Below are positions 10,351 through 32,667 of a DNA stretch of 64,000 nucleotides, one piece after another. Both the position numbers and the translations under genes were made by a program. This DNA is from an uncultured Prevotella sp. (lineage in GTDB: Bacteria > Bacteroidota > Bacteroidia > Bacteroidales > Bacteroidaceae). The notes under the pieces were generated by a model, which was given only the letters and a program-made list of their open reading frames with translations, was not told the DNA's origin and made no database searches. Every line of letters starts with the position of its first letter. The stretch's first letter is position 1. The stretch is from NCBI GenBank assembly GCA_946548085.1, contig CAMNPN010000001.1:5901-69900 (forward strand). The letters run 5' to 3'.

Positions 10351-10379
10351 CAAAAACAGAGAACATGATTTCGAAATGA

Positions 10380-10410: not shown

Positions 10411-10439
10411 TTCAAATTATAGTTGGTACTGCTATTCTT

Positions 10440-10976
10440 TTACCAACTCCAGATGCTGGTATTCGTATTGTTGCTGCGCTGCTCGGTGGTAGTATTTCCA
10501 AATGAATCTGTATAACTTGACGATGAACCTATAATCTGGCCATTGTTATTGCTATAGGTGGTCGTTGTATTTCCAAAACTATCTGTGTAGCTGTTTGATG
10601 ATCCTGTAAATCCACCATTGCCATTGGAATACGTTGTATGGGTATTCCCAAAACTGTCAGTATAGCTGTTTGAAGATCCGATGTAACCACCATTGGCATT
10701 TTGGTGTCTCGTTGTCGTGTTACCAAAGCAGTCCGTTGAGGTAGTAGAGGTACCAATAACACGACCATTTCGATCTCTGTGAGTGGTCGTCGTGTTACCA
10801 AAACTATCCGTATATGACGATGATGTACCCGTGATGCCCCCATTTGCATTCCGATGGGTGCTTGTGCTGTTTCCGAAACTGTCGGTATATCTTGAAGACG
10901 AACCAACGTTATAACCCTGTGCGTTTGCTGCGATGGCGAATGTGACAGCCATCAATGTCATCATTAACTTTTTCAT
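10440..10976 (-). CDS. Secreted repeat protein (6 x 25-aa G-S-S-S-Y-T-D-S-F-G-N-T-T-T repeats)
   Basis: 178 aa with signal peptide MKKLMMTLMAVTFAIAANAQ, followed by six tandem 25-residue units (75-bp DNA period). I recognise no family. Confidence 0.7.
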   Translation of the reverse strand: MKKLMMTLMAVTFAIAANAQGYNVGSSSRYTDSFGNSTSTHRNANGGITGTSSSYTDSFGNTTTTHRDRNGRVIGTSTTSTDCFGNTTTRHQNANGGYIGSSNSYTDSFGNTHTTYSNGNGGFTGSSNSYTDSFGNTTTTYSNNNGQIIGSSSSYTDSFGNTTTEQRSNNTNTSIWSW

Positions 10977-11065
10977 AATTCTAATGTTTAAATTGTTACT
11001 AATTTGTTGTTCTTTTGCCTCTTTATACCCAAAAAGTTCAAAAGGTAACCACTAAAACAAAAAAA

Positions 11066-11653: not shown

Positions 11654-11661
11654 TATCTTTG
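11654..11661 (+). promoter_or_regulatory. -7 promoter box TATCTTTG of the CHAT-AbiH-CHAT operon
   Basis: Exact TAnnTTTG match 27 nt upstream of the ATG at 11689. It overlaps the TTG start used by the ORF track at 11659. Confidence 0.6.
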
Positions 11662-11688
11662 CCCCAAGTGGAACTAAAAATTGAATAT

Positions 11689-14600: not shown

Positions 14601-14913
14601 TTTCCTTAATCTTGATCTTGTTGTGTTATCTGCATGTCAAACAGCCTTAGGCGATGTTGATTCAGAAGGGGTATATGGCCTTCAAAGAGGTTTTAAGAAA
14701 GCTGGCGCAAAAAGCATTCTGATGAGTTTGGATAACGTTGATGATGAAGCAACTCGAATACTTATGGTGGAGTTTTATCGCAATCTTATGAGTGGAAAGA
14801 CAAAGCATCAATCCCTCAAAGATGCCCAGAAGTATCTTCGTCAGGTTGAGAATGGGAAATATGACAAGCCTGAGTACTGGGCCTCGTTTATTATGTTGGA
14901 TGGTCTAAATTGA
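11689..14913 (+). CDS. Exported TPR-repeat CHAT-domain (caspase-fold) protease, long form
   Basis: 1074 aa from the ATG. Has signal peptide MRRLISVLLCAVCHIVAMA and long TPR-like helical repeats. The C-terminal CHAT domain carries His (NALHISTHG) and Cys (LVVLSACQTALG), and the conserved tail ends YWASFIMLDGLN. Confidence 0.85.
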   Translation: MRRLISVLLCAVCHIVAMAHVIENPIFDMTHSPNFRVNKIIISPDTTYLFCTCFISGTWVNISKSTYIEDIESMNRYNIIKSEGLPFGPDKIEVIGDSLINAVLYFPRITGSKVNFIEDENSYAFNIYGININESYKSTYTDRDIDEFRELAVKEDTSGNWDASIDYSLKQLEASDYVYGKRSFPSAWSMYNLTMEYAQLENQEFAARKMIEWGEKAIDILNNVSAYNLRLDSINLDVLARAYGNTSTAFTQLGQSDSASYYMDKSLDIRRNLGKVNGLDYEEYLMHMARNSFFEEKYPQAYLYAKESSDIYEKKYNENQLFYGCLYLNTLSYLCNFAEKIGKYEESINYGNKVLALLNSNVCPDKKSQEILYASTCTGLACAYSQIAQNDKSIEILESFLDTKQEYGRMSIRMLLAEQLLNCRKDTTKVIQEYKSILKTLEDSISVGKYNYPDYSEILHKLAIVYMKKDIDSTIHYFDKYIEVQKKWNGEESIAYGNSLFEYIQWLSPIIILKKSQEIEKVQSYLYQSANIIKRHFNNSIPFLSKRDRKNYWQHYKFLFTEWIPIINRILKTDISYSMAYDAALFYKGMLLSSELEFKNVLLSSEDKTLKELYESYSHNLALIENLYSTNSNTSLVDSLKSVISSQEYLLSQKVSRSYREFKGTNFSWQDVRGKLSDKDVAIEIVSYKTLVDTITYYDAYILKKGISAPILIPLFEENQLKNYVSNGKVDYMGISSLLWANEDMKEVLKGKKNIYFSTSGLLNQIGIEYLPISDEKYIYDIYNLYRLSSTRELCMMDDIHNIVCAYIYGGLDYNASVENDGNGNIINDSKVGVSVIRSLKQRGGFDYLAGSKDEILKVSQELQNNNIDCTVYTAEKGTEESIKKLSGSIVNALHISTHGICISIDNDSVFQKNNLPVLTPDENKDIDEEEMSLSRSFLVMSGGNLLIRRDSIPEGKDDGLLTALEISHLDFLNLDLVVLSACQTALGDVDSEGVYGLQRGFKKAGAKSILMSLDNVDDEATRILMVEFYRNLMSGKTKHQSLKDAQKYLRQVENGKYDKPEYWASFIMLDGLN

Positions 14914-14921
14914 AAGAGGCA

Positions 14922-15887
14922 ATGGCAAAGAATATATATTATATAGGGAATGGCTTCGACCTACATCACCTCATACAGAGCAGCTATAAGAACTACGCAG
15001 ATTGGTTAATGTGCTTTGACTATGGTTTATATTTAAAGGTCAATATGGTATATGGTGCTTTGGGCAGAGAAGATGAATGGTGGGGGGATTTTGAGAACCA
15101 TATTGGAGATTTGGATGTTGAAGCCTATTCTGCTTGGGTATATAGAAACTATGGCCCTGATTTTGGAAGTGATAGTTTTCGCGAGGCCGATCGTTATACT
15201 GCAGAAATGAAAGCAGAGGAGGAACTGAATGATCTGTATTATAAAATTAAACACTCGTTTTACAAATGGGTTCAGCAACTCCATTTAGCAAATGTATTAA
15301 GAAAGGTAGTATTAGATATAAGTGATTCTTATTTCATTTGCTTTAATTATACAGATACCCTGAGGAGACTTTATAAAATCCCCCAGGATAAGATTTGTTA
15401 TATACATGGTAATGCAAGGAAGGGAGATGAATTAGTTCTAGGCCATGGTAAAACAAAGGATCAGTTAATCGAACCTACGTTGATGCCACCTAACTTAACA
15501 GAAGAGCAGCAGCAAGAATGGATTGATGAGAATATAACGGATGACTCATTTCATAGGACTGTAGACGCTACTATAGATGCTGTTAGTAATCAAAGGAAGG
15601 AAGTGGAAAGAATAATATTTCATAATGATGAGGCATGGAATCAAATGACTCATGCACAAAATTTTTACATATACGGTCTTTCCTTCTCCTCAATAGATAC
15701 ACCTTATATAACCAAGGCTCTTTCTATGATGGATAAGAAAAACCTCTCCATTGTAGTAAATTATTATAATCAGAAAGACATAGAGAAAATAAAGGAATAC
15801 TTTCATCAGTTAGAGTTTCCTGAAGAGAAAATAACTATAGTACAATTGAAGGATCTTTTGGTGTACAAACACTTGTATAATCATTAA
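14922..15887 (+). CDS. AbiH-like (abortive infection AbiH family) protein
   Basis: 321 aa. N-terminal IYYIGNGFDLHHLIQSSYKNYADWL and the internal FNYTDTLRRLY...YIHG...LVLGHG blocks match my memory of the AbiH family. No signal peptide. The ATG is 8 nt after the upstream stop. Confidence 0.75.
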   Translation: MAKNIYYIGNGFDLHHLIQSSYKNYADWLMCFDYGLYLKVNMVYGALGREDEWWGDFENHIGDLDVEAYSAWVYRNYGPDFGSDSFREADRYTAEMKAEEELNDLYYKIKHSFYKWVQQLHLANVLRKVVLDISDSYFICFNYTDTLRRLYKIPQDKICYIHGNARKGDELVLGHGKTKDQLIEPTLMPPNLTEEQQQEWIDENITDDSFHRTVDATIDAVSNQRKEVERIIFHNDEAWNQMTHAQNFYIYGLSFSSIDTPYITKALSMMDKKNLSIVVNYYNQKDIEKIKEYFHQLEFPEEKITIVQLKDLLVYKHLYNH

Positions 15888-15894
15888 TAATGAT

Positions 15895-17559
15895 ATGAAA
15901 CGGCTGCTGTGGATATTATTAACTATAGGATTATTTGTTCATAAGGCAAATGGTCAGAAAAGTGAAGTTAGTATTGACAGAGCCATGTCTCTTTCAAGGA
16001 TGGCGGATTTCTATTATACTGCCCATAATTATGAGAAGGCAATAGAGCAAGAAAAGAAAGCACTTGACATGAAGAGTGTACTCTATGGTATACATAGTTT
16101 GGAATATGCAACGTCGGCATTCAATCTCGCCAAGTATTATTATGATCGAGGGATGGAGGGTGAAATTGAATGCAATCCATCAGACTTTATCTACGCAACA
16201 GAGTATGCGAAGAAGTCTATGGCCATTATAAAGGATACGGTCCTTTTTGAAATGAAAGGTTTGGATTATAATTCAAGGTATCAGTTGTGGCAGAACGTAA
16301 ATACTATTTTTGACAGCACCTTTCCGAGCTATGTGGCGAAGAATCCCAATGATTCTATTCTCTCTGATCTTTACAATATCATACTATTTTCAAAAGGAAT
16401 AACCTGGAGAAGAGACGGAGGCATAAATACAATGTGCTGGAAAGAAATACAGAACGCACTTGGTGAGAATGATATCGCTATCGAATTTATATCACCAGTA
16501 GTGCCATCTAATGATAATATGGTGTTCTATGCGTTGACGCTAAAAAAGGGATATAGATGTCCTAAGATGACAAGGCTTTTTGATATCTTTCAGTTTAAAG
16601 ATTCATTAAAATCTTGTAGTTCAAAAGTCGAAAAAGGCCAAAAGATCGGAAATATGGTTTGGAATCCTCTTAATAATGAACTCATTGGAATAGAGAATGT
16701 CTATTTCTCTGCAACGCATGTGCTGAATAATATGCCTATTGAGTATATGCCAATAACTGACACGGAAACCTACAGTGACAGATATTGCATGATAAGGGTT
16801 TCGTCTACTCAAGAAATTGCAAATAATAAAAAACGTAATCATTTTAACAAAGCTATCCTATTCGGAGGTTTGCAATATGAGGCTATAGAGGCGAAAGGTG
16901 AAGATAGAATGGAAAGAAGTGGATTTGAACCTTTACCAAATACAGGAGAAGAGGTCGCTGAGATTGCGAATGTATTTGAGAAAAGACATATCGACTACAA
17001 AGTTTATTCTGGTGATGAAGGGACGGAAGAATTATTTAAGTCTCTTTCCGGCAGTTCCGTTGATATCCTTCATTTAGCAACTCATGGTAAGTATATAGTC
17101 AATAACGACGTTGGGGTGTATCATAATGGTGATGAAGCTTTGACGAATTCGATACTTGTTTTTTCTGGGGTAAATAAACGATCTACATCTAGTTTTGAAC
17201 AAGATGATGGTATAGTAACAGCTCTCGATATATCGCAGATGGTCTTTGGTAATCTTGATCTCATTTCATTATCAGCCTGTGAGTCTGCTTTGGGTGAATA
17301 TGGGATAGATGACAGTATCATGGGTTTACAGCGTGGCTTTAAAATTGCTGGAGCTAATACCATTTTGATGAGTATAGACAAAGTTGATGATGAAGCAACA
17401 AGAATACTGATGGTAGAGTTCTATCGCAATCTTATGAGTGGAAAGACAAAGCATCAATCCCTCAAGGATGCCCAGAAGCATCTTCGCAAGGTTGAGAATG
17501 GGAAATATGACAAGCCCGAGTATTGGGCATCTTTTATTATGTTGGATGGGTTGAATTAA
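15895..17559 (+). CDS. Exported TPR-repeat CHAT-domain protease, short form
   Basis: 554 aa with signal peptide MKRLLWILLTIGLFVHKANG and N-terminal TPR-like repeats. CHAT His (DILHLATHG) and Cys (LISLSACESALG) are present. The last ~60 aa are nearly identical to the 11689-14913 product. Confidence 0.85.
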   Translation: MKRLLWILLTIGLFVHKANGQKSEVSIDRAMSLSRMADFYYTAHNYEKAIEQEKKALDMKSVLYGIHSLEYATSAFNLAKYYYDRGMEGEIECNPSDFIYATEYAKKSMAIIKDTVLFEMKGLDYNSRYQLWQNVNTIFDSTFPSYVAKNPNDSILSDLYNIILFSKGITWRRDGGINTMCWKEIQNALGENDIAIEFISPVVPSNDNMVFYALTLKKGYRCPKMTRLFDIFQFKDSLKSCSSKVEKGQKIGNMVWNPLNNELIGIENVYFSATHVLNNMPIEYMPITDTETYSDRYCMIRVSSTQEIANNKKRNHFNKAILFGGLQYEAIEAKGEDRMERSGFEPLPNTGEEVAEIANVFEKRHIDYKVYSGDEGTEELFKSLSGSSVDILHLATHGKYIVNNDVGVYHNGDEALTNSILVFSGVNKRSTSSFEQDDGIVTALDISQMVFGNLDLISLSACESALGEYGIDDSIMGLQRGFKIAGANTILMSIDKVDDEATRILMVEFYRNLMSGKTKHQSLKDAQKHLRKVENGKYDKPEYWASFIMLDGLN

Positions 17560-18678: not shown

Positions 18679-19200
18679 TTATGTAGATTTCTCTGGAGGG
18701 TCAAACAGGAATGAAATGGTCTCGTTGAATTCCTCTATGACCTGAGGCAGATTCGGGTTATCCCTTTTTGATATAATGGCGATGAAATTCATGATTCCGT
18801 CCATCTTGCCCTCAGCAGTTTTCATGATAAATAATTCACGTCTTTCGTAGATGTTAAACCAACGCACGAAGAGTCTGTTTCGGAATGCTTGCTTGCGGTC
18901 GCCTGTCTCTGCCAAATAAAGCATGGTATCGTCACCGTTTACATCAAAGAACTCTTCGATGATGGCAAAAATGGTAAGTCGTAATTTGCTGTCATGAGGT
19001 GAACGCTCATGGTGTCTGTTGGTAATACCAAACTCGTAGGCTCCACTGGGGATAATGGCCTCATTTATTGTGAAGTCGATGTCGAACCTGACACCACTAT
19101 CACTGACAAAGTAGAAATTGTTATGTCTCACAGGATCCTGCATCACCTTATAAGGAGCATGCAGATTGATGTTCTCCAATCTGAGTGTGTTCATAGTCAA
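18679..19200 (-). CDS. Hypothetical protein (173 aa)
   Basis: Clean ORF on the same strand, 26 nt downstream of the 45-aa ORF. I recognise no motif. Confidence 0.6.
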   Translation of the reverse strand: MTMNTLRLENINLHAPYKVMQDPVRHNNFYFVSDSGVRFDIDFTINEAIIPSGAYEFGITNRHHERSPHDSKLRLTIFAIIEEFFDVNGDDTMLYLAETGDRKQAFRNRLFVRWFNIYERRELFIMKTAEGKMDGIMNFIAIISKRDNPNLPQVIEEFNETISFLFDPPEKST

Positions 19201-19226
19201 TAAAGGTTTAAAAGGCTTCTCTGTTT

Positions 19227-19364
19227 TTATGCAAAAAAGCCTTGAAGTTCTAACTCGTCCATTCTCTTCAGATTTTCTTCCATGCGCTCCTTCTTCCTGC
19301 GCATCGTCTCCCTGAATGCGGCTCTCACCTCTTCACGGGTTCTTTTTGTTTTTCTTGTTTCCAT
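19227..19364 (-). CDS. Small basic protein (45 aa), candidate first gene of a two-gene cassette
   Basis: METRKTKRTREEVRAAFRETMRRKKERMEENLKRMDELELQGFFA. A TAACTTTG box at 19400-19407 (minus strand) lies 35 nt upstream of the ATG, which is canonical spacing. Confidence 0.45.
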   Translation of the reverse strand: METRKTKRTREEVRAAFRETMRRKKERMEENLKRMDELELQGFFA

Positions 19365-19458: not shown

Positions 19459-20121
19459 TCATTTCCTCAACTTATTAAGTATTTCCAGAGCCTTGACAGC
19501 AATGGGTGTATCAGGATTATCTTCTGCCAATTTCTTTAGAACAGGAATAGCCTTATTTGTCTGATCGTTCTTAATATAGGCAAGGGCCAGATTAATGGCA
19601 ATGTCGTTGGCATAAGCGGAATAGGTGAAGTCTGAGTCCATATTGGAATAAATGGTTTCCAATTCTGCTATGATGGTACTGACGTTGCGCTGTTCCTTTA
19701 TATTATTAAATAAGGTGTAGAGGTGGGCGACGGTAACAGAATCTAAATCACCGCGTGAATAATCATCCATGCTATACTCAGAATAATAGGGTGATACAAG
19801 TGCGGAGAGTTCATTAAATCGCTTGTCTTTCTGATAGCCGAAGAAGATGGCAATGACGGCAGCGATAGAGCAGGCCCATGCAACAAGCGTGCGTAGTCTT
19901 TCTTTGGTGTTGTTGCTGATAAGTGTCTTTTCCTTAGCAGCCTCCTGTGAGCGTATGCTTTTAATCAGAGATACGGTAGCCAACACTTGGGCACGCAGTT
20001 CTGGGTCTGCCTTGATCTCTTGCTTAAAGGCTTGTTCTTCAACCTCTGTCATGGCACCACGTATGAAAGCATCGATTCTTTCTTCGATGGCCTGCTGTTG
20101 TATATCGTTGTACTTATCCAT
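19459..20121 (-). CDS. Membrane anti-sigma-like protein with extracytoplasmic TPR-like domain
   Basis: 220 aa. N-terminal FIRGAMTEVEEQAFKQEIKADPEL is an anti-sigma-type helix, followed by a single TM helix (LVAWACSIAAVIAIFFGY) and a C-terminal TPR-like tail. The ATG overlaps the sigma gene stop by 8 nt. Confidence 0.6.
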   Translation of the reverse strand: MDKYNDIQQQAIEERIDAFIRGAMTEVEEQAFKQEIKADPELRAQVLATVSLIKSIRSQEAAKEKTLISNNTKERLRTLVAWACSIAAVIAIFFGYQKDKRFNELSALVSPYYSEYSMDDYSRGDLDSVTVAHLYTLFNNIKEQRNVSTIIAELETIYSNMDSDFTYSAYANDIAINLALAYIKNDQTNKAIPVLKKLAEDNPDTPIAVKALEILNKLRK

Positions 20122-20698
20122 AGATCTTATTCTTTAGTTCGTTATACTTGTCGCGGAACTTCTTCACGCACTTATATTTCTGGGCCTTAACGGAGTTGGC
20201 ATCAGAGAAGTTGAACATATCTGCAATGGTTGATGTCGAGAAGTCATCCCAGTAGTAACTATGAAGAATATTCTTGCAGGTGTCTGTCATCGAGGCGATG
20301 ATATTGTTCACCAGCAGTTCCATACGGGTTTTCCTTTCTTCTTCCTCCGCATCTATACAAGCGCCATAGAGTTCTGCTATCTTGTCATCACGTACAAAGT
20401 CGGAGTTGGTGAGTCTTCTATCGTCAAAGAAAGGTTTCGTCTTGCTGTCCTTTCCCAGGAACTTTAGGGTCTGGTTAATGCAGACTCTCATGAAATAGGT
20501 TCCTAACGAACTTGTCAGAGTAGACAACTTCCCGTCACGGACATTCAGGAAAAGAGCCATTGATGACTCCTGGAAGATATCATCAAGGTCATCATCTGAG
20601 ACATAGAACTGTTTCCGTAGATATGACAATACCCTTCCTCTCTCATCAGAAAGGAAGCGGTTCAAATCCTGGTTCTGCAATGATATCTCCTTTGCCAT
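20114..20698 (-). CDS. ECF-type sigma-70 family RNA polymerase sigma factor
   Basis: 194 aa. Region 2-like DDLDDIFQESSMALFLNV...YFMRVCINQ and region 4-like CKNILHSYYWDDFSTSTIADMFNFSDANSVKAQKYKCVKKFR. Confidence 0.8.
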   Translation of the reverse strand: MAKEISLQNQDLNRFLSDERGRVLSYLRKQFYVSDDDLDDIFQESSMALFLNVRDGKLSTLTSSLGTYFMRVCINQTLKFLGKDSKTKPFFDDRRLTNSDFVRDDKIAELYGACIDAEEEERKTRMELLVNNIIASMTDTCKNILHSYYWDDFSTSTIADMFNFSDANSVKAQKYKCVKKFRDKYNELKNKIYG

Positions 20699-20699
20699 A

Positions 20700-21569
20700 T
20701 TAGAAACTCGTTTCTGTTACCATGTTCTGATTATTGGGCCAATGGCCATTCTTCATAATGGAAGCCTTGACTCCATTCAAGAATTCCTCGGCATTGGTGG
20801 ATAAGGGTCTTGTTTGCAATGCCTGAGCGATGTTGTAAGACAGCGGGCCATAGCGCTTATCTGCCACCATTATCTCCATATTCACCTGATCCGGGCGACA
20901 GGCTTCAAGATACAGGACATGAGACTGTTTGGCTGATGGCTCAATCTTGTAATGGGACTTCTTGTCAGCAGAAGGCTTGAACACCTTGTTATGATAGGTA
21001 AAGCCGACCTTGGTACCTCTGACTGTTTCGTCATTGGCGCGTGAGGATGTGCCGGCATGGCAGGCATCAATCACCACATAGAGGAATCCCGTAGGACCTA
21101 TCTTGTCGCGTAACTTTTTGACGTATGTGTTCAGCTGATCATCCAGAAGATGCTTTTTCCCTTCATAGACGCCTTTCTTATAGAGTTTATAGGCATCGAT
21201 GGGGATGATGGCTTCATCCCAGCCATCTTCTTCATCACCATTCAAGTCTTCTACAGGCTGGCCGTGTGCTGAGAAGTGGAGATAGACGATATCACCTTTT
21301 TTCGTCTTGTCTGCGAACTGAGATAGTTGGGTGATAATATTTTCGAAAGTGGCCTGTTCATCCAAGAGAGAGGTGATAGCAAATCCTTGCTTTTTCAGGA
21401 TGGGAGTTAAAAGATTCACGTCTTCAGTACCATTGATATTATTCCACTGGTAGCCAGTCAATGCCGTGTCATAATGAGAGATGCCCACCATGAAAGCCCT
21501 TTTCCGTTGTGGAAATGCAACAGACGAAATACAGCATAACAGACTTAATATCAGCAGTTTCCAATTCAT
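20700..21569 (-). CDS. Exported caspase-family (peptidase C14) protease
   Basis: 289 aa from the ATG at 21569, with signal peptide MNWKLLILSLLCCISSVAF. The catalytic dyad blocks are YLHFSAHGQ and VVIDACHAGTS. Its stop codon is 1 nt from the sigma ATG. Confidence 0.85.
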   Translation of the reverse strand: MNWKLLILSLLCCISSVAFPQRKRAFMVGISHYDTALTGYQWNNINGTEDVNLLTPILKKQGFAITSLLDEQATFENIITQLSQFADKTKKGDIVYLHFSAHGQPVEDLNGDEEDGWDEAIIPIDAYKLYKKGVYEGKKHLLDDQLNTYVKKLRDKIGPTGFLYVVIDACHAGTSSRANDETVRGTKVGFTYHNKVFKPSADKKSHYKIEPSAKQSHVLYLEACRPDQVNMEIMVADKRYGPLSYNIAQALQTRPLSTNAEEFLNGVKASIMKNGHWPNNQNMVTETSF

Positions 21570-21587: not shown

Positions 21588-21595
21588 CAAATATA
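21588..21595 (-). promoter_or_regulatory. -7 promoter box TATATTTG of the caspase-sigma-anti-sigma operon
   Basis: Plus-strand caaatata is the reverse complement of TATATTTG, 18 nt upstream of the ATG at 21569. The track start at 21590 is the TTG inside this box. Confidence 0.6.
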
Positions 21596-21690
21596 CAAAA
21601 ATATTTCGAAATAGCGGTTACCTTTTTGTTTTTTTCAGTATAAAGAGGCAAATAAACAACAAATTAGTAACAATTTAAACATCAAACAAA

Positions 21691-22230
21691 ATGAAAAAAG
21701 TATTTTATCACATCACGAGAGTGTTTTCTAAGTGCTGGTTTATCATCCTCCTTGCTTGCACGATTTCGCCAATCGTAGCCTTAGGTGTCCTCATCCTCTT
21801 TACCATTATCTCAATGGTATTTTTCAAGGATCCTGATGATGCCAAGAACCCTGATGATTATTTCACAGATGAGGAAATGAAGAGATTGGAGTCCGGCGAG
21901 GACATGAATGACGAGGAGTTTCTGACGCTGGTGGCTAAATGTCAGACCTTCAACTGCCCGAAGAAAGTCGATCCTGTAACGACCTGGACGAGTTCTGAAT
22001 TGACCAAGGACGCATACATCTATAACTATGAGATTAACGACAAAAAACACATGTATCGTCTCTTGGATATGAATGACCTGAAGAATCAGATCCTGTCAAG
22101 GATTGACAAACAAAACGATAAGATTCAGCGCATTATTGCTACTAATAGAAATCTTGTGTTCCGTTACAGGAATTATCAGAAGAACACCATAGAAGATGTT
22201 GTTCTGACAACAAACGAGCTTAGGAGTTAA
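21691..22230 (+). CDS. Hypothetical membrane-anchored protein (179 aa)
   Basis: N-terminal hydrophobic stretch WFIILLACTISPIVALGVLILFTIISMVFF followed by a soluble domain. It is divergent from the caspase operon. Confidence 0.6.
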   Translation: MKKVFYHITRVFSKCWFIILLACTISPIVALGVLILFTIISMVFFKDPDDAKNPDDYFTDEEMKRLESGEDMNDEEFLTLVAKCQTFNCPKKVDPVTTWTSSELTKDAYIYNYEINDKKHMYRLLDMNDLKNQILSRIDKQNDKIQRIIATNRNLVFRYRNYQKNTIEDVVLTTNELRS

Positions 22231-22269
22231 GATTAGAAACATGTATAACCCTATAAAAACAGAAATAAT

Positions 22270-22836
22270 ATGGCACTATTAAGTTTGTTCGGCGCAAAGC
22301 CAAAGGAAAAGGTAGAGATGGTTCCTGTCATTCCAGAGAATTCTACCGAGCAAGATGCTGAGGACGTAAAGAACTCAGAGGAAGACAACGAAGAAGAGAA
22401 AAAGCATCTGATCACCATCACCTGGGGAACGGGAATGCCCATAGACGTCATTTTCAACTACATTCATAAGAACTTCGAGGAAGAAGGATTCCAGGATGCG
22501 TTGGTTAATTCAGACATTACTTATCGCGATGCCAAAGAGAAAATTATCCGTAACGACCTGGAGATGCTTTTCAAACGTATTATCCTCTGCTACAAGAAGA
22601 ATATCCGTGAGATAGATGTCCAGATTAACAATGCCCGTCAGGCATACGCCCTTTCTGCTGCATCAAGCCTGGAAGCCCGGCGTACCACCTATGAAGAGCA
22701 TCTTACAGAGATTGATGAGATGCGTGAACAGTTTGAGTCAGACGATCCTAAAATGATGACCATGATAGAGTCATATCGCAGGGGATTTCTCAAAGGAATC
22801 ACAGCAGTATCACTTAAGTTTATTAATCACGAATAA
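22270..22836 (+). CDS. Hypothetical protein (188 aa), acidic N-terminus plus helical C-terminus
   Basis: Clean ORF 39 nt after the previous gene. No recognised motif. Confidence 0.6.
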   Translation: MALLSLFGAKPKEKVEMVPVIPENSTEQDAEDVKNSEEDNEEEKKHLITITWGTGMPIDVIFNYIHKNFEEEGFQDALVNSDITYRDAKEKIIRNDLEMLFKRIILCYKKNIREIDVQINNARQAYALSAASSLEARRTTYEEHLTEIDEMREQFESDDPKMMTMIESYRRGFLKGITAVSLKFINHE

Positions 22837-22848
22837 GAATTATCAGTT

Positions 22849-23838
22849 ATGAAAACTTTAAATAATATTGGATGTGCCCTGATTGGATGGGACAAGAATA
22901 TCTTGAAAGAATGTGGTGAGGCAAGTCACCGCCAGTTTAGAAAACTGATCTCTGCCATTTGTATCATGATGATACTCTGGGGAACCATCGGCTACTGTTT
23001 TGCCGACAGATACATAAATATTGAATCATTAGTATTGAAGATTTGTATTGCCTTGATGTTCATGCTCATTGTCTTATGCGTAGAACGAGTGATCATTCTA
23101 ACGGTTGGCAAAGCGCGCCTTATGACTGTGATGAGAGTTATGCTTGCTTTATGTATGGCTTTTCTGGGAGCTTGTATCTTTGACCAAATTATCTTCCAAA
23201 ATGATATTCAGCAGACAATACACGATCGCCGTGAGGACGTAATTCAGGAAACTACAGCAAAACGTCTGATGGTCTTTAATAGTGATATACAAAGGATTAC
23301 TCATGATTTGGATTCGTTGAGCAAATCTACAATTACTTTGGGTGAAGAATTGGCGAAACATCCTACTATAAAGAGCGTTAACGTATCAACAATAGAACAG
23401 GCCATAGGAGTTGATGAGAATGGTAATCCAAAGAAAGTGAGAAATCGTTCTACAGAGATTGTGAATATTCCTAATCCTCTGACTGGACAGCTAAATGCAA
23501 ATAACGAACAGATTCAGTTATATCAAAATCAGTTAGAGCAGCTTCGTCAGGACAAAAAAGAGATTGCTGGAAAGGTGACAGATGAAATACACTCTCGTCC
23601 TGTTGGATTTATTGAGGAATTGGAAGCGACTCTGAAGGTTGTGTCGAACAGCTGGATATCATTGGTATTTTATATAGTTCTCTTCTGCTTCCTGACATTT
23701 CTGGAACTGTTCGTTCTAACAATCAAAATGGGCGAAAGTAAGTGTGACTATGATTTGATAGTGGAGAACCAGTTGAAACTGAAAAAGAACCTCATGGATC
23801 AGACTGCACAGAGTATGATGGTGAATATAGCAGTTTAG
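22849..23838 (+). CDS. Membrane protein with long central coiled coil (DUF4407-like architecture)
   Basis: 329 aa with three N-terminal TM helices, a heptad-rich segment of about 140 aa (LNANNEQIQLYQNQLEQLRQDKKEIAGK) and a C-terminal TM helix (WISLVFYIVLFCFLTFLELFVLTI). The family name is from memory and uncertain. Confidence 0.6.
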   Translation: MKTLNNIGCALIGWDKNILKECGEASHRQFRKLISAICIMMILWGTIGYCFADRYINIESLVLKICIALMFMLIVLCVERVIILTVGKARLMTVMRVMLALCMAFLGACIFDQIIFQNDIQQTIHDRREDVIQETTAKRLMVFNSDIQRITHDLDSLSKSTITLGEELAKHPTIKSVNVSTIEQAIGVDENGNPKKVRNRSTEIVNIPNPLTGQLNANNEQIQLYQNQLEQLRQDKKEIAGKVTDEIHSRPVGFIEELEATLKVVSNSWISLVFYIVLFCFLTFLELFVLTIKMGESKCDYDLIVENQLKLKKNLMDQTAQSMMVNIAV

Positions 23839-23864
23839 TATTAACACTTTAAATATAAACGTTT

Positions 23865-24131
23865 ATGGAAACAAGAGACGACTTATTTAGTGATGTCATC
23901 GAAGAGATGTTTGAAGAACTACCCATTGAAGTTAAAATGGATATGGATGAGGAAGATTTGGAAGATCTAGTCGATGAAGATAATGATTGGGAAGAATCTG
24001 ATAATTACGAGTGTGGTGGTTATCTGTGGACAGAGGAAGATTCCTGGGATGCACTTACGGATGGAATGTATGGTGAAATGCCCAATAGCCCTTGGGAATA
24101 TGATGCGATGATGGATGCTATGGGATTCTAA
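23865..24131 (+). CDS. Extremely acidic small protein (88 aa)
   Basis: By my count 33 Asp/Glu against 2 Lys/Arg. It has aromatic-acidic motifs (DNDWEESDNYE, SPWEYDAMMD). Confidence 0.6.
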   Translation: METRDDLFSDVIEEMFEELPIEVKMDMDEEDLEDLVDEDNDWEESDNYECGGYLWTEEDSWDALTDGMYGEMPNSPWEYDAMMDAMGF

Positions 24132-24144
24132 TAAAGTTTAGACT

Positions 24145-24717
24145 ATGGATAAGGAATTAAAAGTAATGATCTCAAAAGAAATGGAGCAGTTCCATTGCTC
24201 CATTCTTTTAGACGAAGTGAAAGAAAAAGTACGTAAGTTGAAAGCGTATGGTGTGGAGGAAGCAGATATTGTAGCTGCCATGAATGAGGAAGAACTATTC
24301 CCTCAGTTGGTGGTGACAGAAGATTACAAGGTTGTTTTGGCAGGAGAAAAGTCCATAGAGGTAGAGATGGAGCCCCTGATAAAGGCTATATATTTGTTGT
24401 TCTTGTCCCATCCAGAGGGGATTGTGCTCAAATGTCTTCCAGATTATCGTAAAGAACTAACTAGTATCTATCTGCTTCTACGTCCATATGGACTTACTGA
24501 CAGAGTAGAAAATAGTATTGAAAGCGTGACCAATCCTATGCAGAACTCAATCAATGAGAAGTGTGCCAGGATTCGGAAACTGTTCTCATCGCTGCTCCCC
24601 AAGAGTGTTGCCAAATATTATGCCATTTCTGGTAAGCGTGGCGAAGCCAAGAAGATAGATCTTGTTCGGGCCAATGTCGTCTGGAAATGCAAATTGCCTA
24701 ATTCGCAAGGCTTGTGA
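24145..24717 (+). CDS. Uncharacterised protein, paralog of the FtsZ-coupled gene at 28117-28701
   Basis: 190 aa. Shares the blocks VVTEDYKVVL, IYLLFLSHPEGI, NSINEKCARIRKLF and VVWK with the 28117-28701 product. Confidence 0.65.
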   Translation: MDKELKVMISKEMEQFHCSILLDEVKEKVRKLKAYGVEEADIVAAMNEEELFPQLVVTEDYKVVLAGEKSIEVEMEPLIKAIYLLFLSHPEGIVLKCLPDYRKELTSIYLLLRPYGLTDRVENSIESVTNPMQNSINEKCARIRKLFSSLLPKSVAKYYAISGKRGEAKKIDLVRANVVWKCKLPNSQGL

Positions 24718-24751: not shown

Positions 24752-24759
24752 TATCTTTG
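24752..24759 (+). promoter_or_regulatory. -7 promoter box TATCTTTG ahead of the 142-aa gene and dnaB
   Basis: Exact TAnnTTTG match 23 nt upstream of the ATG at 24783. It lies inside the longer track ORF that starts at 24714. Confidence 0.55.
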
Positions 24760-24782: not shown

Positions 24783-25211
24783 ATGACAGACTACGAGTAC
24801 ATTATTACACAATTGAAGAAGTGTCATTTCTCTGGATGGGATGACAAAGTGATGAGGGATTGTATTGACAGGTTGCCTAACTTGTCGCGTCAGGAATTGA
24901 CAGCGCTCTATTTAGGTAAATGGGTGAAGGAGTATGCTGTGTTTAAGGAGGCTATCTTCAACATTATGTTTGCTGATAAGATAGGACTGCGAGAAGAGCG
25001 TATCAGGAATCTTGATACGGAGGCGCTGATTGCGGAGTTTAAGGATAAGAAAGGTGGAAATGTGTCACTTTGCAGGGAAGAACTGAAGGCTCGCTATGAG
25101 GCTGGGCGTGATGTGGATCTGATAGCTGAGGCTTTTACTGCTTCGAACAAGAAAGACCAGCAGTGGATTATCAAACAGGAGAAGAAATCAAAGGATGGGG
25201 ACAAGAAGTGA
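24783..25211 (+). CDS. Hypothetical protein (142 aa) overlapping the dnaB start
   Basis: MTDYEYIITQLKK... start chosen because of the promoter box. The 3' end overlaps the dnaB ATG by 17 nt. Confidence 0.55.
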   Translation: MTDYEYIITQLKKCHFSGWDDKVMRDCIDRLPNLSRQELTALYLGKWVKEYAVFKEAIFNIMFADKIGLREERIRNLDTEALIAEFKDKKGGNVSLCREELKARYEAGRDVDLIAEAFTASNKKDQQWIIKQEKKSKDGDKK

Positions 25212-26706
25212 TAGGAGACAGTCGTCGCAGCAGTCATTGGAACTTGCTTACGGTCATGTGATGCCTCAGGCTCCTGAGGTGGAGAAGGCTGTGCTGGGAG
25301 CGCTGATGATAGACAAGGATGCCTATCTGGAGGTGTGCGACCTGTTGAGGCCAGAGAGTTTCTATGAGCCAAGAAACCAGATGGTGTATGAGGCTATTAT
25401 GAAACTCAGCATAGAGGAGAGTCCCGTGGATGTGCTGACGGTGACTGACAAGTTGGGCAAGATGGGGAAACTCGAGGATGTCGGAGGGCCTGGATATATA
25501 GCAGAACTCAGTTCAAGGGTCGCTTCTTCGGCCAATATCGAGTATCATGCCAATGTGGTGGCGGAGAAATATCTGTCGCGCCAGATGATTCATTATGTGG
25601 GAGAGGTAGGAAAGAAGACTTTTGACGAGACATATCCCATCAAGGATGTGGTTAATGATGCACAGGCCAAACTCTTTGAACTGTCTCAGAAGAATATGAA
25701 GAAGGACTATTCCGTGCTTGCTCCTATTCTGGAGAGGGCTGTCAAGTCTGTTCAGGATGCCCACTCTAATACAGGAGGTGTGACGGGTATTCCCACCGGT
25801 TTTTACAAACTGGACGACATCACTTGCGGATGGCAAAAGTCTGATCTTGTGATTATTGCCGGAAGACCTGCTATGGGAAAGACTGCCTTTGCCCTTTCAT
25901 TGGCGAAGAACATCGCTGCGGATCAGAAGATTCCGATGGCATTCTTCTCGTTGGAGATGTCAAGCGAACAACTGGCAAACCGTCTGATGGCTAATGCCTT
26001 TGAGATAGACGGTAAGAAACTCATGAGCGGACAGTTGGATCGTGAAGATTGGAACAGGCTTGATAAGGGTATGAATAATCTCGTAGACGCACCTTTGTAT
26101 ATTGACGATACGGAAGGACTTTCGGTGATGGAACTGAGGACTAAGGCTCGTCGATTGGTAAATGAACACCATGTGCAGTTGATCATGGTGGATTACCTTC
26201 AACTGATGACTGCCAGTGGCATGAGATATAACAGTCGCCAAGAGGAGGTGTCGCTGATTTCCCGATCACTGAAAGGTCTCGCTAAGGAATTGGATATCCC
26301 TGTTCTGGCATTAAGTCAGTTGAACAGAGGGGTAGAGGGAAGAGATGGGGCAGAGGGGAAACGCCCCATGCTTTCTGACCTTCGAGAGTCTGGTGCCATT
26401 GAGCAGGATGCGGATATGGTGGTGTTCTTGCATCGCCCAGAGTATTATGGTATTATGATGAGTGATGACGGCACGAAAGACTATCGAGGGATGGCGGAAG
26501 TGATAATAGCCAAGCATCGTAAAGGTGCAGTTGGTATCAAGTTGTTGAAGTTCAGAGGGGAATACACGCGGTTTGAGAATCCAGAGGATAATATGATTGG
26601 CAATGGTGTTCCCAGCGATGGTGGTGAAATCGTTGGCTCGAAGATCAATGGTGAGAATAGCATGCCCTTCCCGCCACCAGACTCATTCAACTCGTTCAAT
26701 ATTTAA
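25195..26706 (+). CDS. dnaB: Replicative DNA helicase
   Basis: 503 aa. Has the N-terminal domain EVEKAVLGALMIDKDAY, Walker A GRPAMGKTAF, and the SLEMS, DYLQLM and RESGAIEQDAD blocks. Confidence 0.9.
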   Translation: MGTRSDRRQSSQQSLELAYGHVMPQAPEVEKAVLGALMIDKDAYLEVCDLLRPESFYEPRNQMVYEAIMKLSIEESPVDVLTVTDKLGKMGKLEDVGGPGYIAELSSRVASSANIEYHANVVAEKYLSRQMIHYVGEVGKKTFDETYPIKDVVNDAQAKLFELSQKNMKKDYSVLAPILERAVKSVQDAHSNTGGVTGIPTGFYKLDDITCGWQKSDLVIIAGRPAMGKTAFALSLAKNIAADQKIPMAFFSLEMSSEQLANRLMANAFEIDGKKLMSGQLDREDWNRLDKGMNNLVDAPLYIDDTEGLSVMELRTKARRLVNEHHVQLIMVDYLQLMTASGMRYNSRQEEVSLISRSLKGLAKELDIPVLALSQLNRGVEGRDGAEGKRPMLSDLRESGAIEQDADMVVFLHRPEYYGIMMSDDGTKDYRGMAEVIIAKHRKGAVGIKLLKFRGEYTRFENPEDNMIGNGVPSDGGEIVGSKINGENSMPFPPPDSFNSFNI

Positions 26707-26800: not shown

Positions 26801-28120
26801 ATGGGCGAGGAAATAATAGAGTTTGACGGCATCAGAGATACGATGCAAGGCATCATCAAGGTGATCGGCGTTGGTGGTGGTGGCTGTAATGCCGTGCGGA
26901 ATATGTATAATGAACAAGTGACGGGCGTCACCTTTGCAGCCTGCAATACGGACAGCCAGTCGCTGAAGGGATCGCCAGTGCCAGTGAAAGTGCTGATGGG
27001 CGAGGGCCTTGGTGCTGGCGGTGACCCTGAGATTGGCAGGTCGGAGGCAGAGAAAAGCATTGACACGCTGAGGGAGATACTGAGCGATGGCACGAAGATG
27101 GTGTTTATCACCGCCAGCATGGGGGGCGGCACGGGTACTGGCTCTGCGCCCGTGGTGGCGCAGGTGGCTCAGGAACTGGGGCTGCTGACGGTGGGGGTGG
27201 TGACCATACCGTTCTATTTCGAACGTAAGCCCAAAATTATCCAGGCTTTGAAGGGTGTTGACGAGATGAGGAAGTATGTGGATGCGATGCTGATCATCAA
27301 TAACGAACGGCTCTGTGACGTGTATTCTGACTCGGAGATCTCGCTGAAAGAGGCGTTCGGACGTGCAGACAATATCCTGAAGGATGCCGTGAAGGGCATC
27401 TCCGAACTGATCACCGTGCATAGCGAAGGCAGTATCAACCTCGACTTCCGTGATGTCGAGGCTACGATGAAAGACGGTGGTGGGGCCATCATGGCGATGG
27501 GACGTGCCAGCGGCGAGCATCGTGTGGAGAAGGCGATCATCGATGCCCTGAACTCACCCTTGCTCTATGGCAACGATATCGGCAAGGCGAAGCGAATCCT
27601 GTTTAATATCTATGCCAGCGATGAGCATCCCATCTTCGTCAGGGAGATGCAGGAGATAGACGATTTCTTCGATCAGTTGGATCCCAATATCAGCGTCATC
27701 TGGGGTACGTCTACTGACGACTCCTTGGGCGAAGATGCCAAGGTGACAATCCTGGCAACAGGCTTGGAGGACGATATGTGCAAAGAAACAGGCCAGGATG
27801 TGCATCGCAATGCTGATGACTATTATGAGGATCTGATACCTAAACTCTATAAGCCTGCCAAGAAGAAGGTGGCAGAGGTCATCACCCAGGAACTGCCATT
27901 CGTTGTGGAACCTGCTGCAGAGCCAGAACCTGCCGTAGTCAGCGAGCCTGTTGACAGTCATGAGGCTACTGTTGAACCTGTGTCTGCGCCGTCTGTAACT
28001 CCTGTGCCCGAGGGGACAAAGGAGCGTGATGAGGATGAACAGGAGGAGCCTGAAGAGTCTACGATGGTGAGCAAGTGGAAGGGCTGGTTGAACAACTTGG
28101 TGAAAGACGTGACAGAATGA
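26801..28120 (+). CDS. ftsZ: FtsZ-family tubulin-like GTPase
   Basis: Contains IKVIGVGGGGCNAV, GLGAGGDPEIG, the tubulin signature SMGGGTGTGSAP and the T7-like NLDFRDV. It has an acidic Pro-rich linker and an amphipathic C-terminal peptide KWKGWLNNLVKDV. There is no ftsA or ftsQ next to it. Confidence 0.9.
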   Translation: MGEEIIEFDGIRDTMQGIIKVIGVGGGGCNAVRNMYNEQVTGVTFAACNTDSQSLKGSPVPVKVLMGEGLGAGGDPEIGRSEAEKSIDTLREILSDGTKMVFITASMGGGTGTGSAPVVAQVAQELGLLTVGVVTIPFYFERKPKIIQALKGVDEMRKYVDAMLIINNERLCDVYSDSEISLKEAFGRADNILKDAVKGISELITVHSEGSINLDFRDVEATMKDGGGAIMAMGRASGEHRVEKAIIDALNSPLLYGNDIGKAKRILFNIYASDEHPIFVREMQEIDDFFDQLDPNISVIWGTSTDDSLGEDAKVTILATGLEDDMCKETGQDVHRNADDYYEDLIPKLYKPAKKKVAEVITQELPFVVEPAAEPEPAVVSEPVDSHEATVEPVSAPSVTPVPEGTKERDEDEQEEPEESTMVSKWKGWLNNLVKDVTE

Positions 28121-28701
28121 GCGAGTTGATCCTTTCACCAGAAGAGGCGGCCCAGGAAGTGAAGCGGCTGACGATGCAACTGCAACAGTCGGGTAGGCAG
28201 GACCTGTTGTTGCATGCACTTGGTGTACCTCTTTTGGAGGAACTCAGAATAGAGGCTGCCAAGGGACGGTTGAGCCGACTGGTGATAACTGAAGACTACC
28301 GATTCGTATTGGAAGACTATCACAAGGAGGTGGAACTGCAGCCTGTGCATAAGGCCGTCTATCTGCTGTTCCTGGCCCATCCGGAGGGTATCGAGTTCAA
28401 GCGCCTGGCGGAGTATCGTGATGAATTGTTGGGCTATTACATGTCTACTGCAAAGATGATGGACAAGGAGAAGGTGATAGAGAGTGTAGACCATCTGACA
28501 GACCCGCTCGACAATGCCATCAACGAGAAATGTTCACGTATCAAGAAGGTGTTTCTTGAACTGATGGATGAGTACTCGGCAAGTTACTATATCATCAGCA
28601 GTCATACGCAGAAACATGTCGTTGGCTCCAGTCGTATCTGGTACGAACGGCTGAAGGTGGTAAGGCTGCCAAGGGAACTGGTGGTGTGGAAAAGAGGGTA
28701 G
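28117..28701 (+). CDS. Uncharacterised protein translationally coupled to the ftsZ homolog (paralog of 24145-24717)
   Basis: 194 aa. Its ATG overlaps the ftsZ TGA (ATGA at 28117-28120). Blocks: VITEDYRFVL, VYLLFLAHPEGI, NAINEKCSRIKKVF, VVWK. Confidence 0.7.
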   Translation: MSELILSPEEAAQEVKRLTMQLQQSGRQDLLLHALGVPLLEELRIEAAKGRLSRLVITEDYRFVLEDYHKEVELQPVHKAVYLLFLAHPEGIEFKRLAEYRDELLGYYMSTAKMMDKEKVIESVDHLTDPLDNAINEKCSRIKKVFLELMDEYSASYYIISSHTQKHVVGSSRIWYERLKVVRLPRELVVWKRG

Positions 28702-32290: not shown

Positions 32291-32364
32291 TGGAGCGGAA
32301 TACGGGAATCGAACCCGCCTCCCAGGCTTGGGAAGCCCGTGCACTACCGATGTGCTAATTCCGC
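32291..32364 (-). tRNA. tRNA-Gly (anticodon CCC)
   Basis: Hand-folded cloverleaf: acceptor gcggaat/attccgc, anticodon loop ttCCCaa, T-loop ttcgatt, encoded CCA. Confidence 0.85.
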
Positions 32365-32392
32365 ATGAAAATAAGTTTTCTGATTACTTTTG

Positions 32393-32465
<73 letters not shown>

Positions 32466-32478
32466 AACCTTTTATTTG

Positions 32479-32551
32479 TACACCCGCAGGGGTTCGAACC
32501 CTGGACACCCTGATTAAGAGTCAGGTGCTCTACCAACTGAGCTACGGGTGC
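32479..32551 (-). tRNA. tRNA-Lys (anticodon CTT), copy 1
   Basis: Acceptor gcacccg/cgggtgt (G1-U72 wobble in my fold), anticodon stem cctga/tcagg with loop ctCTTaa, T-loop ttcgaac. Confidence 0.85.
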
Positions 32552-32594
32552 ATCCGATTTTTCAAAAAGAAAGGAGGGTCGCTTGCCTCCTCTG

Positions 32595-32667
32595 TACACC
32601 CGCAGGGGTTCGAACCCTGGACACCCTGATTAAGAGTCAGGTGCTCTACCAACTGAGCTACGGGTGC
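32595..32667 (-). tRNA. tRNA-Lys (anticodon CTT), copy 2
   Basis: Identical in sequence to 32479-32551. Tandem duplicate with a 43-nt spacer. Confidence 0.85.

Follow-up and report, generated by a model that had tools for sequence, protein, structure and literature searches.

Known systems and the Prevotella locus

DdvS of Myxococcus, a sigma factor of the extracytoplasmic function (ECF) class whose anti-sigma factor DdvA carries a periplasmic TPR-CHAT domain, switches on a defence island (PMC11506125). Analysis of 64,000 nucleotides (nt) of rumen Prevotella DNA (assembly GCA_946548085.1, contig CAMNPN010000001.1, positions 5,901 to 69,900; this whole stretch is called the window) revealed a five-gene operon, g1 to g5, divergent from a trio of genes encoding a caspase-family protease, an ECF-type sigma factor and an anti-sigma-like protein. 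Among known systems the arrangement comes closest to DdvS/DdvA, which it resembles in combining an ECF sigma factor, a putative single-pass anti-sigma protein with a predicted periplasmic TPR part, a caspase-superfamily protease on the periplasmic side and an adjoining candidate target operon within an accessory region of defence type. It differs in that the protease is a separate exported Peptidase_C14 protein, the 220-amino-acid anti-sigma-like protein has no CHAT or caspase fusion, and its N-terminal domain lacks a possible CHCC zinc site. Furthermore, the predicted targets (DUF4407 and others) are unrelated to CBASS or CRISPR.

A second described system is the type III-E CRISPR craspase, in which Cas7-11 acts with the TPR-CHAT protein Csx29, which cleaves Csx30, the holder of an ECF-like sigma factor; this system is cytoplasmic and RNA-guided. 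The window locus likewise links a caspase-family protease, a putative anti-sigma-like substrate and an ECF-type sigma factor in a conflict context. In contrast to craspase, CRISPR genes are missing here, and both protease and sensor components carry export features. The main text of the ECF reclassification paper does not contain the terms "CHAT", "caspase" or "Peptidase_C14".

Two further comparisons concern g3. Its product shares the whole model and the layout of 3 + 1 transmembrane helices around a coiled coil with the DUF4407 family, the description of which includes neither an obligate g2-like partner nor the HNH association seen here; the literature searched contained three incidental mentions of DUF4407 and no functional study. 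Zorya type II consists of the membrane protein ZorA with a long coiled-coil tail, ZorB, and the HNH nuclease ZorE. Outside Prevotella, g2-DUF4407 loci similarly pair a long-coiled-coil membrane protein with an HNH protein; unlike in Zorya, g3 shows no MotA/ExbB match, no ZorB-like gene is present and the window operon has no HNH gene. This likeness is suggested as a lead only. The regulatory logic, an ECF sigma factor with a protease-coupled anti-sigma, is of an already known kind. No description was found in the literature searched of an architecture with a split caspase, of this promoter consensus, of a g2/DUF4407 module (with or without HNH) or of the g4-g5 pair.

The g1-g5 operon and its divergent control region

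The comparison of the window proteins covered 79 genome loci at species level and 14 loci from metagenomes; the closest genome locus is that of the metagenome-assembled genome RGIG3773 (L015). A sequence-only reading of the window had described five plus-strand open reading frames (ORFs) separated by 39, 12, 26 and 13 nt, and this arrangement was recovered exactly (Table 1). Genes g1 to g5 show the features used to call an operon, i.e., a common strand, short spacers and no internal terminator or promoter: no terminator-like site was predicted on the plus strand between 21691 and 28701, and no -7 box was found in the g1-g5 spacers. The run of plus-strand genes goes on past 24717 with g6 (24783-25211), dnaB, ftsZ and a g5 paralogue (g5p). 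A housekeeping-type -7 box in the g5-g6 spacer is the probable separate promoter of g6-dnaB and marks the likely 3' limit of the operon, and transcripts may read through from g5 into g6-dnaB.

The ratio of nonsynonymous to synonymous substitution rates (dN/dS) between strains was 0.00 to 0.20 where both rates were computable, with the exception of g4 (0.58 over 89 codons). Two of the g4 comparisons and one of the g1 comparisons had a dS of zero, and gapped alignments led to the omission of some gene/strain pairs. Homologues of the operon genes number hundreds to thousands, with orthologues in many species. As judged by sequence comparison, the five ORFs are real genes under purifying selection and not chance ORFs.

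Table 1. Positions of the operon, its control elements and other features (window coordinates unless a locus is named)
Feature	Position	Strand	Remark
g1	21691-22230	+	179 amino acids
g2	22270-22836	+	188 amino acids
g3	22849-23838	+	329 amino acids
g4	23865-24131	+	88 amino acids
g5	24145-24717	+	190 amino acids
Candidate ECF-type promoter GGTTAC(C)-N16-GTATAAA	21616-21644	+	47 nt before g1 ATG; exact pattern match
Conserved A-rich leader GAGGCAAATAAACAACAAATTAGTAACAATTTAAAC...	21645-21690	+	almost verbatim copy upstream of x178 (alignment)
Two overlapping housekeeping-type -7 boxes TATATTTG, TATTTTTG	21588-21603	-	facing caspase operon; TANNTTTG scan
Peptidase_C14 caspase-family protease	20700-21569	-	first gene of divergent operon; Pfam E 2.7e-21
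ECF-type sigma factor	20114-20698	-	residues 13-184 match TIGR02937 (NCBIfam) with 49.1 bits; cut-off, 42.9
Anti-sigma-like single-pass protein	19459-20121	-	220 amino acids; overlaps sigma gene by 8 nt
Second exact motif copy	11022-11050	-	46 nt before x178
x178	10440-10976	-	secreted 178-amino-acid protein; about six SYTDSFGNTTTT(H/Y)xxxNG repeats
Housekeeping-type -7 box TATCTTTG	24752-24759	+	g5-g6 spacer, 24 nt before g6 ATG
g5p, g5 paralogue	28117-28701	+	overlaps ftsZ stop codon by 4 nt; context, outside operon
Two TPR-CHAT proteins with N-terminal signal-like sequences, AbiH homologue between them	11659-17559	+
DarT/ADP-ribosylglycohydrolase/NUDIX-NrtR/PLD-type slot contents	L036 183-7781; L028 7957-9728; L033

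The 121 bp between g1 and the caspase gene (ATG at 21569, as called in related contigs) had been proposed as a control region shared by both operons, and it contains two predicted promoters, one per direction. In Bacteroidetes, the housekeeping -7 consensus is TAnnTTTG. On the minus strand, TTGTATATTTGCC holds this consensus about 20 nt before the caspase ATG, and the GGCAAATATACAA block of the -7 region is kept in an alignment of 17 species. TAnnTTTG boxes are present before the caspase operon, x152, g6, ftsZ and the rubrerythrin gene; none was found before g1 on the plus strand of the 121-bp region. Alignment of the caspase/g1 intergenic regions from the 17 species revealed a conserved plus-strand block, GCGGTTACCTTTT-N-GTATAAAGAGGCAAA, which corresponds to GGTTACC-N16-GTATAAA. 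The sequence flanking this motif diverges while the motif stays conserved. In 17 of 17 sigma-bearing species loci it lies 44 to 48 nt before the first operon gene, i.e., g1 or, where g1 is absent, g2.

The exact two-block motif occurs twice in the window, compared to 0.10 copies expected by chance. The second copy precedes x178, together with a duplicate of the leader that follows the motif before g1; an Rfam search of the leader detected no known RNA. x178 is the second predicted member of the regulon, sharing the promoter and leader of g1.

The divergent trio would supply the sigma factor for these promoters. The caspase-family protease has a signal-like hydrophobic N terminus (residues 1-19) and contains the SAHG and DACHAG motifs. 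The anti-sigma-like protein consists of an N-terminal helical domain, a transmembrane segment (residues 75-97) and a C-terminal TPR part; its matches to anti-sigma and TPR hidden Markov models are weak and all below the cut-offs (NF052375, E 0.003). Residues 1-74, the predicted cytoplasmic part, contain no Cys or His, and a CHCC zinc site is therefore impossible.

The promoter motif accompanies the sigma factor family

The sequence-only reading had put forward the operon as a target of the adjacent ECF sigma factor. Across 1.49 Mb of related loci, the motif with at most one mismatch was found at promoter positions only in sigma-bearing loci. The genes behind it were g1 or g2, x178 or x152, and, in six loci, a short ORF resembling the anti-sigma N terminus. 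A related sigma factor (32% identity) in L012 is encoded with a TPR anti-sigma-like gene co-directionally upstream of g2-g5; there, GTTTACC-N15-GTATATA precedes g2 (found by reading the sequence) and a one-mismatch copy stands before an operon whose last gene encodes a caspase.

An exact-pattern scan of metagenomes listed 83 motif matches in 80 loci. Among the matches listed, the downstream gene was a g1 homologue in 28, an x178 homologue in 24, g2 in 4, a gene for a long g4-like protein in 2 and a gene for a small short-repeat lipoprotein in 20, with no ORF or an unclear one in 5; g1, x178, g2 or a g4-like gene thus followed 58 of the 83. In one of the two g4-like cases (L159), the g4-like gene is the first behind the promoter, and no g1, g2, g3 or g5 match was found in that locus.

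The small-lipoprotein loci include contigs which from their names we take to be from soil or rhizosphere samples; L136 is taken in this way to be from soil Bacteroidetes. In 8 of the 14 longer small-lipoprotein loci, an ECF sigma factor homologous to that of the window (25-26% identity, tblastn) is encoded 1-2 kb away. In L136 (5927-9046), the sigma factor is 27% identical to the window sigma factor (BLASTP E 7e-15), and the adjoining anti-sigma is fused to a trypsin-like protease domain (Trypsin_2, E 1.2e-21). Divergent from the anti-sigma gene lie four tandem small lipoprotein genes with DTTKK/ADSAKM repeats, of which at least one stands behind the same promoter type. The soil-type loci keep the two motif blocks and not the leader, the homologous sigma factor is the only shared neighbour, and g5 is not present. 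The promoter type and a protease-coupled anti-sigma thus travel with the sigma family across distant Bacteroidota, which is the strongest sequence-based evidence for a g1-g5 and x178 regulon.

In summary, the motif occurs in 17 of 17 sigma loci, is absent from promoter positions without the sigma factor, is repeated before x178 and recurs with a soil homologue. Because its distribution tracks the sigma family, the proposed sigma regulon is well supported computationally.

Two variations of the motif were observed. It is tandemly duplicated before g1 in L016 (7684-7776) and L039 (7481-7601). L023 (5167-5357, minus strand), L009, L024, L030, L031 and L035 have a third motif-like site, CGATTACCTTTCCCC...GTATCAAGGG, immediately 3' of the gene for the anti-sigma; it precedes a 57-amino-acid ORF resembling the anti-sigma N-terminal domain, a predicted product that could exert feedback control. 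This third type was looked for in the window and is absent there.

The operon appears to be composed of three separable modules

Conservation was counted in 65 species loci. All 20 of those that carry g2 or g3 have both genes. The caspase/sigma/anti-sigma trio is complete wherever it occurs (17/17) and accompanies 17 of the 20 g2-g3 loci; it was never found without g2-g3. g1 is missing from 7 of the 20 g2-g3 loci, comprising four with the sigma factor (L021, L024, L035 and L044), in which the motif stands directly before g2, and three without the trio. g4-g5 occur without g2-g3 in L028, L032, L050 and L068, and g2-g3 occur without g4 in L016, L017 and L087.

About 17 species, with protein identities of 55-85%, share the order g(1)-2-3-4-5. 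Conservation of the five-gene order was borne out in part: the order is retained, but g1 is optional and the modules are separable. The view of the five genes as one fixed system did not hold, given the seven loci without g1, g2-g3 pairs that travel alone elsewhere, and g4-g5 pairs without g2-g3. By this comparison, the operon comprises three separable modules: an optional g1, a mobile pair g2-g3, and g4-g5 at a conserved island edge.

The mobility of g2-g3 was followed outside Prevotella. A tblastn search with g3 against 50,697 phage genomes gave no match, and one against plasmid records gave a single match, on replicon pPP1 of Persicobacter psychrovividus. On pPP1, a gene for a 100-amino-acid HNH-like protein and a homologue of g2 (E 6.6e-8 in hhalign, probability 94.6%) lie before the DUF4407 gene. 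The triad of HNH, g2 (47% identity) and g3 (49%) was also found on 15 IMG/VR contigs, where its neighbours are a pair of tyrosine integrases, a toxin-antitoxin pair of the YafQ type and antirepressors of the Bro-N/ANT kind. The pPP1 and IMG/VR HNH proteins share 47% identity. The similarity of the small HNH protein to the PADLOC ZorE model is weak (E 7.8e-4) and of a generic HNH kind. A scan of viral contigs with a g2 alignment pattern detected nothing, although g2 homologues are present there, which marks a limit of the pattern method.

Properties of g1, g2 and g3

The general descriptions given of the five products from sequence proved accurate. g1 is N-terminally anchored by a single long hydrophobic segment (residues 11-48). 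Its layout comprises a basic N terminus, a hydrophobic stretch of about 30 residues, an acidic stretch and a conserved C-x4-CPKK...TxW domain, and it is poorly conserved (31-58% identity between species). By the positive-inside rule, we infer that the C-terminal domain faces the periplasm.

g2, a probably cytoplasmic protein, is acidic and helical (pI 4.9; 20% D+E). Its N terminus carries the conserved motif MALLSLFGxKPK; the protein also contains a disordered, acidic region, a stretch of conserved sequence (residues 48-82) and, between residues 83 and 185, a long helical hairpin. The AlphaFold model (predicted local distance difference test [pLDDT] score, 64) shows the N-terminal third as disordered and acidic. 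A profile search of 1.84 billion representatives (E up to 0.001) placed g2 in a family of 276 clusters at 50% identity, which is outside Pfam; the 150 best relatives listed are mostly stand-alone proteins of about 170-210 amino acids, plus shorter partial sequences. The N-terminal motif and modelled hairpin might recall PspA/ESCRT-III, which is only a thought because a Foldseek search with the g2 model gave no match; a Pfam PspA match was not obtained for g2 either.

The DUF4407-like architecture of g3 was corroborated. The protein matches DUF4407 (PF14362) over the length of the model (E 2.2e-36; score, 126.1 bits; cut-off, 31.3), with residues 17-308 covering positions 1-296 of the 297-position model. 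Its 3 + 1 hydrophobic segments lie at about residues 34-54, 63-85, 96-116 and 265-290 and enclose a charged, coiled-coil-like middle part of 148 amino acids. According to the positive-inside rule and charge counts, g3 is probably an inner-membrane protein with a periplasmic middle segment.

Searches of Pfam, NCBIfam, PHROGs and PADLOC with g1, g2, g4, g5 and g6 gave nothing usable. Sequence searches of the Protein Data Bank (PDB) with profiles or single sequences of g1 to g6 gave nothing below E 0.03, and the matches were coiled-coil noise. Against PADLOC-DB 2.0, none of g1-g5 scored below E 0.001 (best, g2 against PDC-M14B, E 0.0015), and the distant g2/g3 homologues had no match in it either.

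g4, g5 and the flanking dnaB and ftsZ genes

g4 is hyper-acidic (38% D+E, pI 4.05) and ends in the conserved motif WTEEDSWDALTDGMYGxMPxxPxEYDAMMDAMGF. g5 is paralogous to g5p (41% identity, BLASTP E 1e-32). In the AlphaFold2 model of g5 (pLDDT 86.7), a long N-terminal helix is followed by a small sheet, further helices and a hairpin at the C terminus. Among PDB entries, Foldseek matched this model best to AdeR, PhoB, CadC, ToxR and OmpR (E 0.1-3, probability up to 0.96), and the OmpR/PhoB-type family accounted for 18 of the 20 top matches (E 0.1-3; template modelling score of about 0.6 on the target). Foldseek against viral structures was uninformative. A Trans_reg_C signature was not matched in Pfam at E up to 0.1, and no PDB sequence match was obtained. 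The winged-helix domains of OmpR, PhoB and ToxR have the same order of secondary structure as the g5 model (small N-terminal sheet, helices, C-terminal hairpin), but g5 has two extra helices between helix 1 and the putative recognition helix and no receiver or membrane domain. With moderate confidence, the model suggests that g5 and its paralogues are probable DNA-binding proteins.

The g5 family is multi-copy in Prevotellaceae, with > 558 members in genomes. The order g5-like, g6, dnaB (often), ftsZ, g5p is kept across Prevotellaceae; loci without the island have a PIF1-type helicase gene directly upstream of the g5-like gene. In the window, g6 shares 17 nt with the start of dnaB, and ftsZ has no adjoining ftsA or other dcw genes. 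We considered dnaB and ftsZ as element-borne copies and rejected this, as both lie in normal-G+C DNA and their products pass the NCBIfam equivalog cut-offs (DnaB, TIGR00665, 528 bits against 385; FtsZ, TIGR00065, 328 against 295). The closely related strain L002 has a clean g6-ftsZ junction without dnaB (12351-12610, compared with 25195-26706 in the window), and several other species also lack dnaB between g6 and ftsZ; therefore, dnaB either varies in position or is present in a second copy. In L087, a 470-amino-acid protein (9098-10510) with an N-terminal membrane region fused to a g5-like C-terminal domain is encoded just downstream of a distant g2/g3 pair.

A variable defence-type island with the operon at its edge

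The G+C content falls from about 0.52 to 0.30-0.45 across roughly 10-25 kb of the window. This stretch carries genes for a VapE-like primase, the small exported proteins x178 and x152, two exported TPR-CHAT proteins with AbiH, DUF6169, the caspase/sigma/anti-sigma trio and g1-g5; on its 3' side, g6, dnaB, ftsZ and g5p all have normal G+C content. In the sister strain L002, genes for SIR2_2 and a 1,047-amino-acid TPR protein replace the TPR-CHAT/AbiH cassette. Other Prevotella have genes for DarT, ADP-ribosylglycohydrolase, NUDIX-NrtR and a PLD-like nuclease in the slot that is bounded by the PIF1 helicase gene on one side and by g2-g5 or g4-g5 on the other. As different genes occupy the same position across species, the site is a hotspot for conflict-type cassettes. 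The g1-g5 region is a modular assembly at the 3' edge of this variable, defence-type island in rumen Prevotella.

Proposed regulation and alternative explanations

According to our scheme, the caspase/ECF-sigma/anti-sigma operon would be transcribed leftwards from its housekeeping-type promoter, and the single-pass anti-sigma would keep the sigma factor at the membrane. By analogy with DdvS/DdvA, an extracytoplasmic cue acting via the exported caspase and TPR proteins (perhaps TPR-CHAT) would remove the anti-sigma, and the freed sigma factor would fire the GGTTACC-N16-GTATAAA promoters before g1-g5 and x178. We regard this scheme, from the housekeeping-driven trio to the protease-linked release and the firing of the motif, as likely. 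Of the products, g3 would sit in the inner membrane with its long coiled segment probably in the periplasm, g2 would bind it as an obligate partner at the cytoplasmic face, and g1 would contribute an optional periplasmic domain. The acidic g4 and g5, the probable DNA-binding winged-helix protein, would give a secondary transcriptional output. The anatomy of the genes, their co-occurrence and the cis element that they share are observed; that transcription depends on the sigma factor, that proteolysis activates it, how the proteins lie in the membrane and what each does biochemically are what we infer here.

The best overall explanation of the locus is a sigma-dependent, three-module unit at the edge of a variable defence-type island with a presumed envelope output, and we consider the chances that it is correct to be about even. 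Its most likely purpose would be an inducible, envelope-acting conflict function such as phage or competitor exclusion or abortive infection; this is a tentative proposal, which we hold at slightly under even chances.

Several observations weigh against a sigma-controlled unit with a conflict function. The sigma operon itself has no copy of the motif, and autoregulation, which is common for ECF sigma factors, is therefore absent. The g2-g3 loci L033, L036 and L087 have no nearby sigma gene, and the association of the trio with g2-g3 (Fisher p 6e-13) is not phylogeny-corrected. In soil Bacteroidetes, the homologous sigma factor appears to control only small lipoproteins, which fits an envelope function as well as defence. 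No PHROG of known function matched the operon proteins, nor did PADLOC models or, by sequence, solved structures. Strains do not differ in g3 (100% identity), and purifying selection acts on all the genes, unlike what is seen in fast-evolving defence genes. Concerning individual lines of evidence, the g5 fold assignment rests on Foldseek E-values of 0.1-3, and the 15 IMG/VR contigs are near-identical and represent one or two independent observations. Moreover, a different regulator could use the motif, or it could simply be a promoter cassette that was duplicated.

Some of these points would be expected of the main alternative, an envelope-stress or surface-remodelling regulon without a conflict role, by which periplasmic damage would be sensed and the operon and x178 would repair or re-coat the envelope. 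The localisable products are mostly exported or membrane-bound (x178, g1, g3), the homologous soil sigma factor stands beside arrays of small repeat lipoproteins, purifying selection is strong and the defence database PADLOC gave no matches. Such a regulon accounts poorly, however, for the patchy distribution (20 of 65 species loci), for the DarT, PLD, SIR2 and AbiH cassettes held by the hotspot elsewhere and for the occurrence of g2-g3 with HNH on integrative elements next to a toxin-antitoxin pair, and we consider it rather unlikely.

Alternatively, the five genes may be no functional unit at all, unrelated cassettes having been recombined beside g4-g5, which would be part of the conserved flank and control genes of replication or division. 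Conservation is indeed tiered, with g5-like, g6, dnaB, ftsZ and g5p in most Prevotellaceae loci; g4-g5 and g2-g3 each occur apart from the other module's genes in the loci named above, dS forms a mosaic between adjacent genes (0.01-0.65), and DnaB and FtsZ pass as equivalogs. On the other hand, the 12-39-nt spacers contain no terminator or -7 box, gene order is kept in about 17 species and a g4-like gene can lead behind a sigma-type promoter. This explanation is partly absorbed into the modular one and competes with it only over a common function; in that respect it seems doubtful to us.

As a further alternative, the motif might be an operator or promoter of another factor, for example g5 itself or a different alternative sigma factor. 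The leader of about 40 nt, conserved and duplicated before x178, would suit a DNA- or RNA-binding regulator, and the lack of the motif at the sigma operon agrees with this. However, the geometry is promoter-like (blocks of 6-7 and 7 nt separated by N15-16, 44-48 nt before the ATG), the soil loci keep the two blocks only and share the homologous sigma factor but no g5, and the motif tracks the sigma factor in 17 of 17 loci and in L012, which makes another factor improbable.

An extended version of the proposed scheme, in which the cascade would sense envelope attack and induce the g2/DUF4407 membrane module, elsewhere coupled to an HNH nuclease, together with g5, modulated by g4, so that g5 would compete with the paralogues flanking dnaB and ftsZ and arrest replication and division as a dormancy or abortive response, is very improbable in our estimation. 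The suggestion of the sequence-only reading that the operon may be a membrane effector module with a possible FtsZ-interacting component, by which the last gene would block division through FtsZ, takes its appeal from g5p, which overlaps the ftsZ stop codon and stays adjacent to ftsZ across Prevotellaceae, but the g5 model resembles DNA-binding winged-helix domains of the OmpR/PhoB type and g5 is therefore not an obvious FtsZ partner, other paralogues lie next to the PIF1 helicase gene, g6 and dnaB with no ftsZ nearby, and no similarity to known FtsZ regulators was detected in Pfam, NCBIfam or the PDB, so we give this role very little credence.

If the preferred explanation of a sigma-dependent modular unit is true, a separate exported caspase would constitute a second architecture beside the one studied protease-coupled anti-sigma that switches on accessory conflict genes; relatives instead fuse a trypsin-like protease to the anti-sigma. 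Bacteroidota dominate gut and rumen communities and their alternative-sigma promoters are poorly known; for this sigma family, the consensus GGTTACC-N15/16-GTAT[AT]AA is offered. The obligate g2-like partner family and the recurrent HNH companion on mobile elements provide a first contextual handle on DUF4407, and a Prevotellaceae-wide family of probable DNA-binding proteins is flagged beside dnaB and ftsZ. At least one carrier is in culture, Prevotella sp. P6B1 (L026).

Other features of the window

Between the anti-sigma gene and the TPR-CHAT cassette, a DUF6169 gene (18679-19364, minus strand) is preceded by a 45-amino-acid highly basic ORF, with a housekeeping-type -7 box upstream; this pair occurs only in some strains. 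A long hairpin-like element (8451-8566) with weak miRNA-precursor-type Rfam matches follows a GDSL lipase gene, and after it lies the VapE-like primase gene, which carries DUF3874 (8750-9997, minus strand). The hairpin element and the primase gene may mark the left boundary of a mobile element or be what is left of one. Downstream of g5p, a cluster of four tRNA genes (32291-32667, minus strand) encodes Gly-CCC, Thr-CGT and two Lys-CTT tRNAs.

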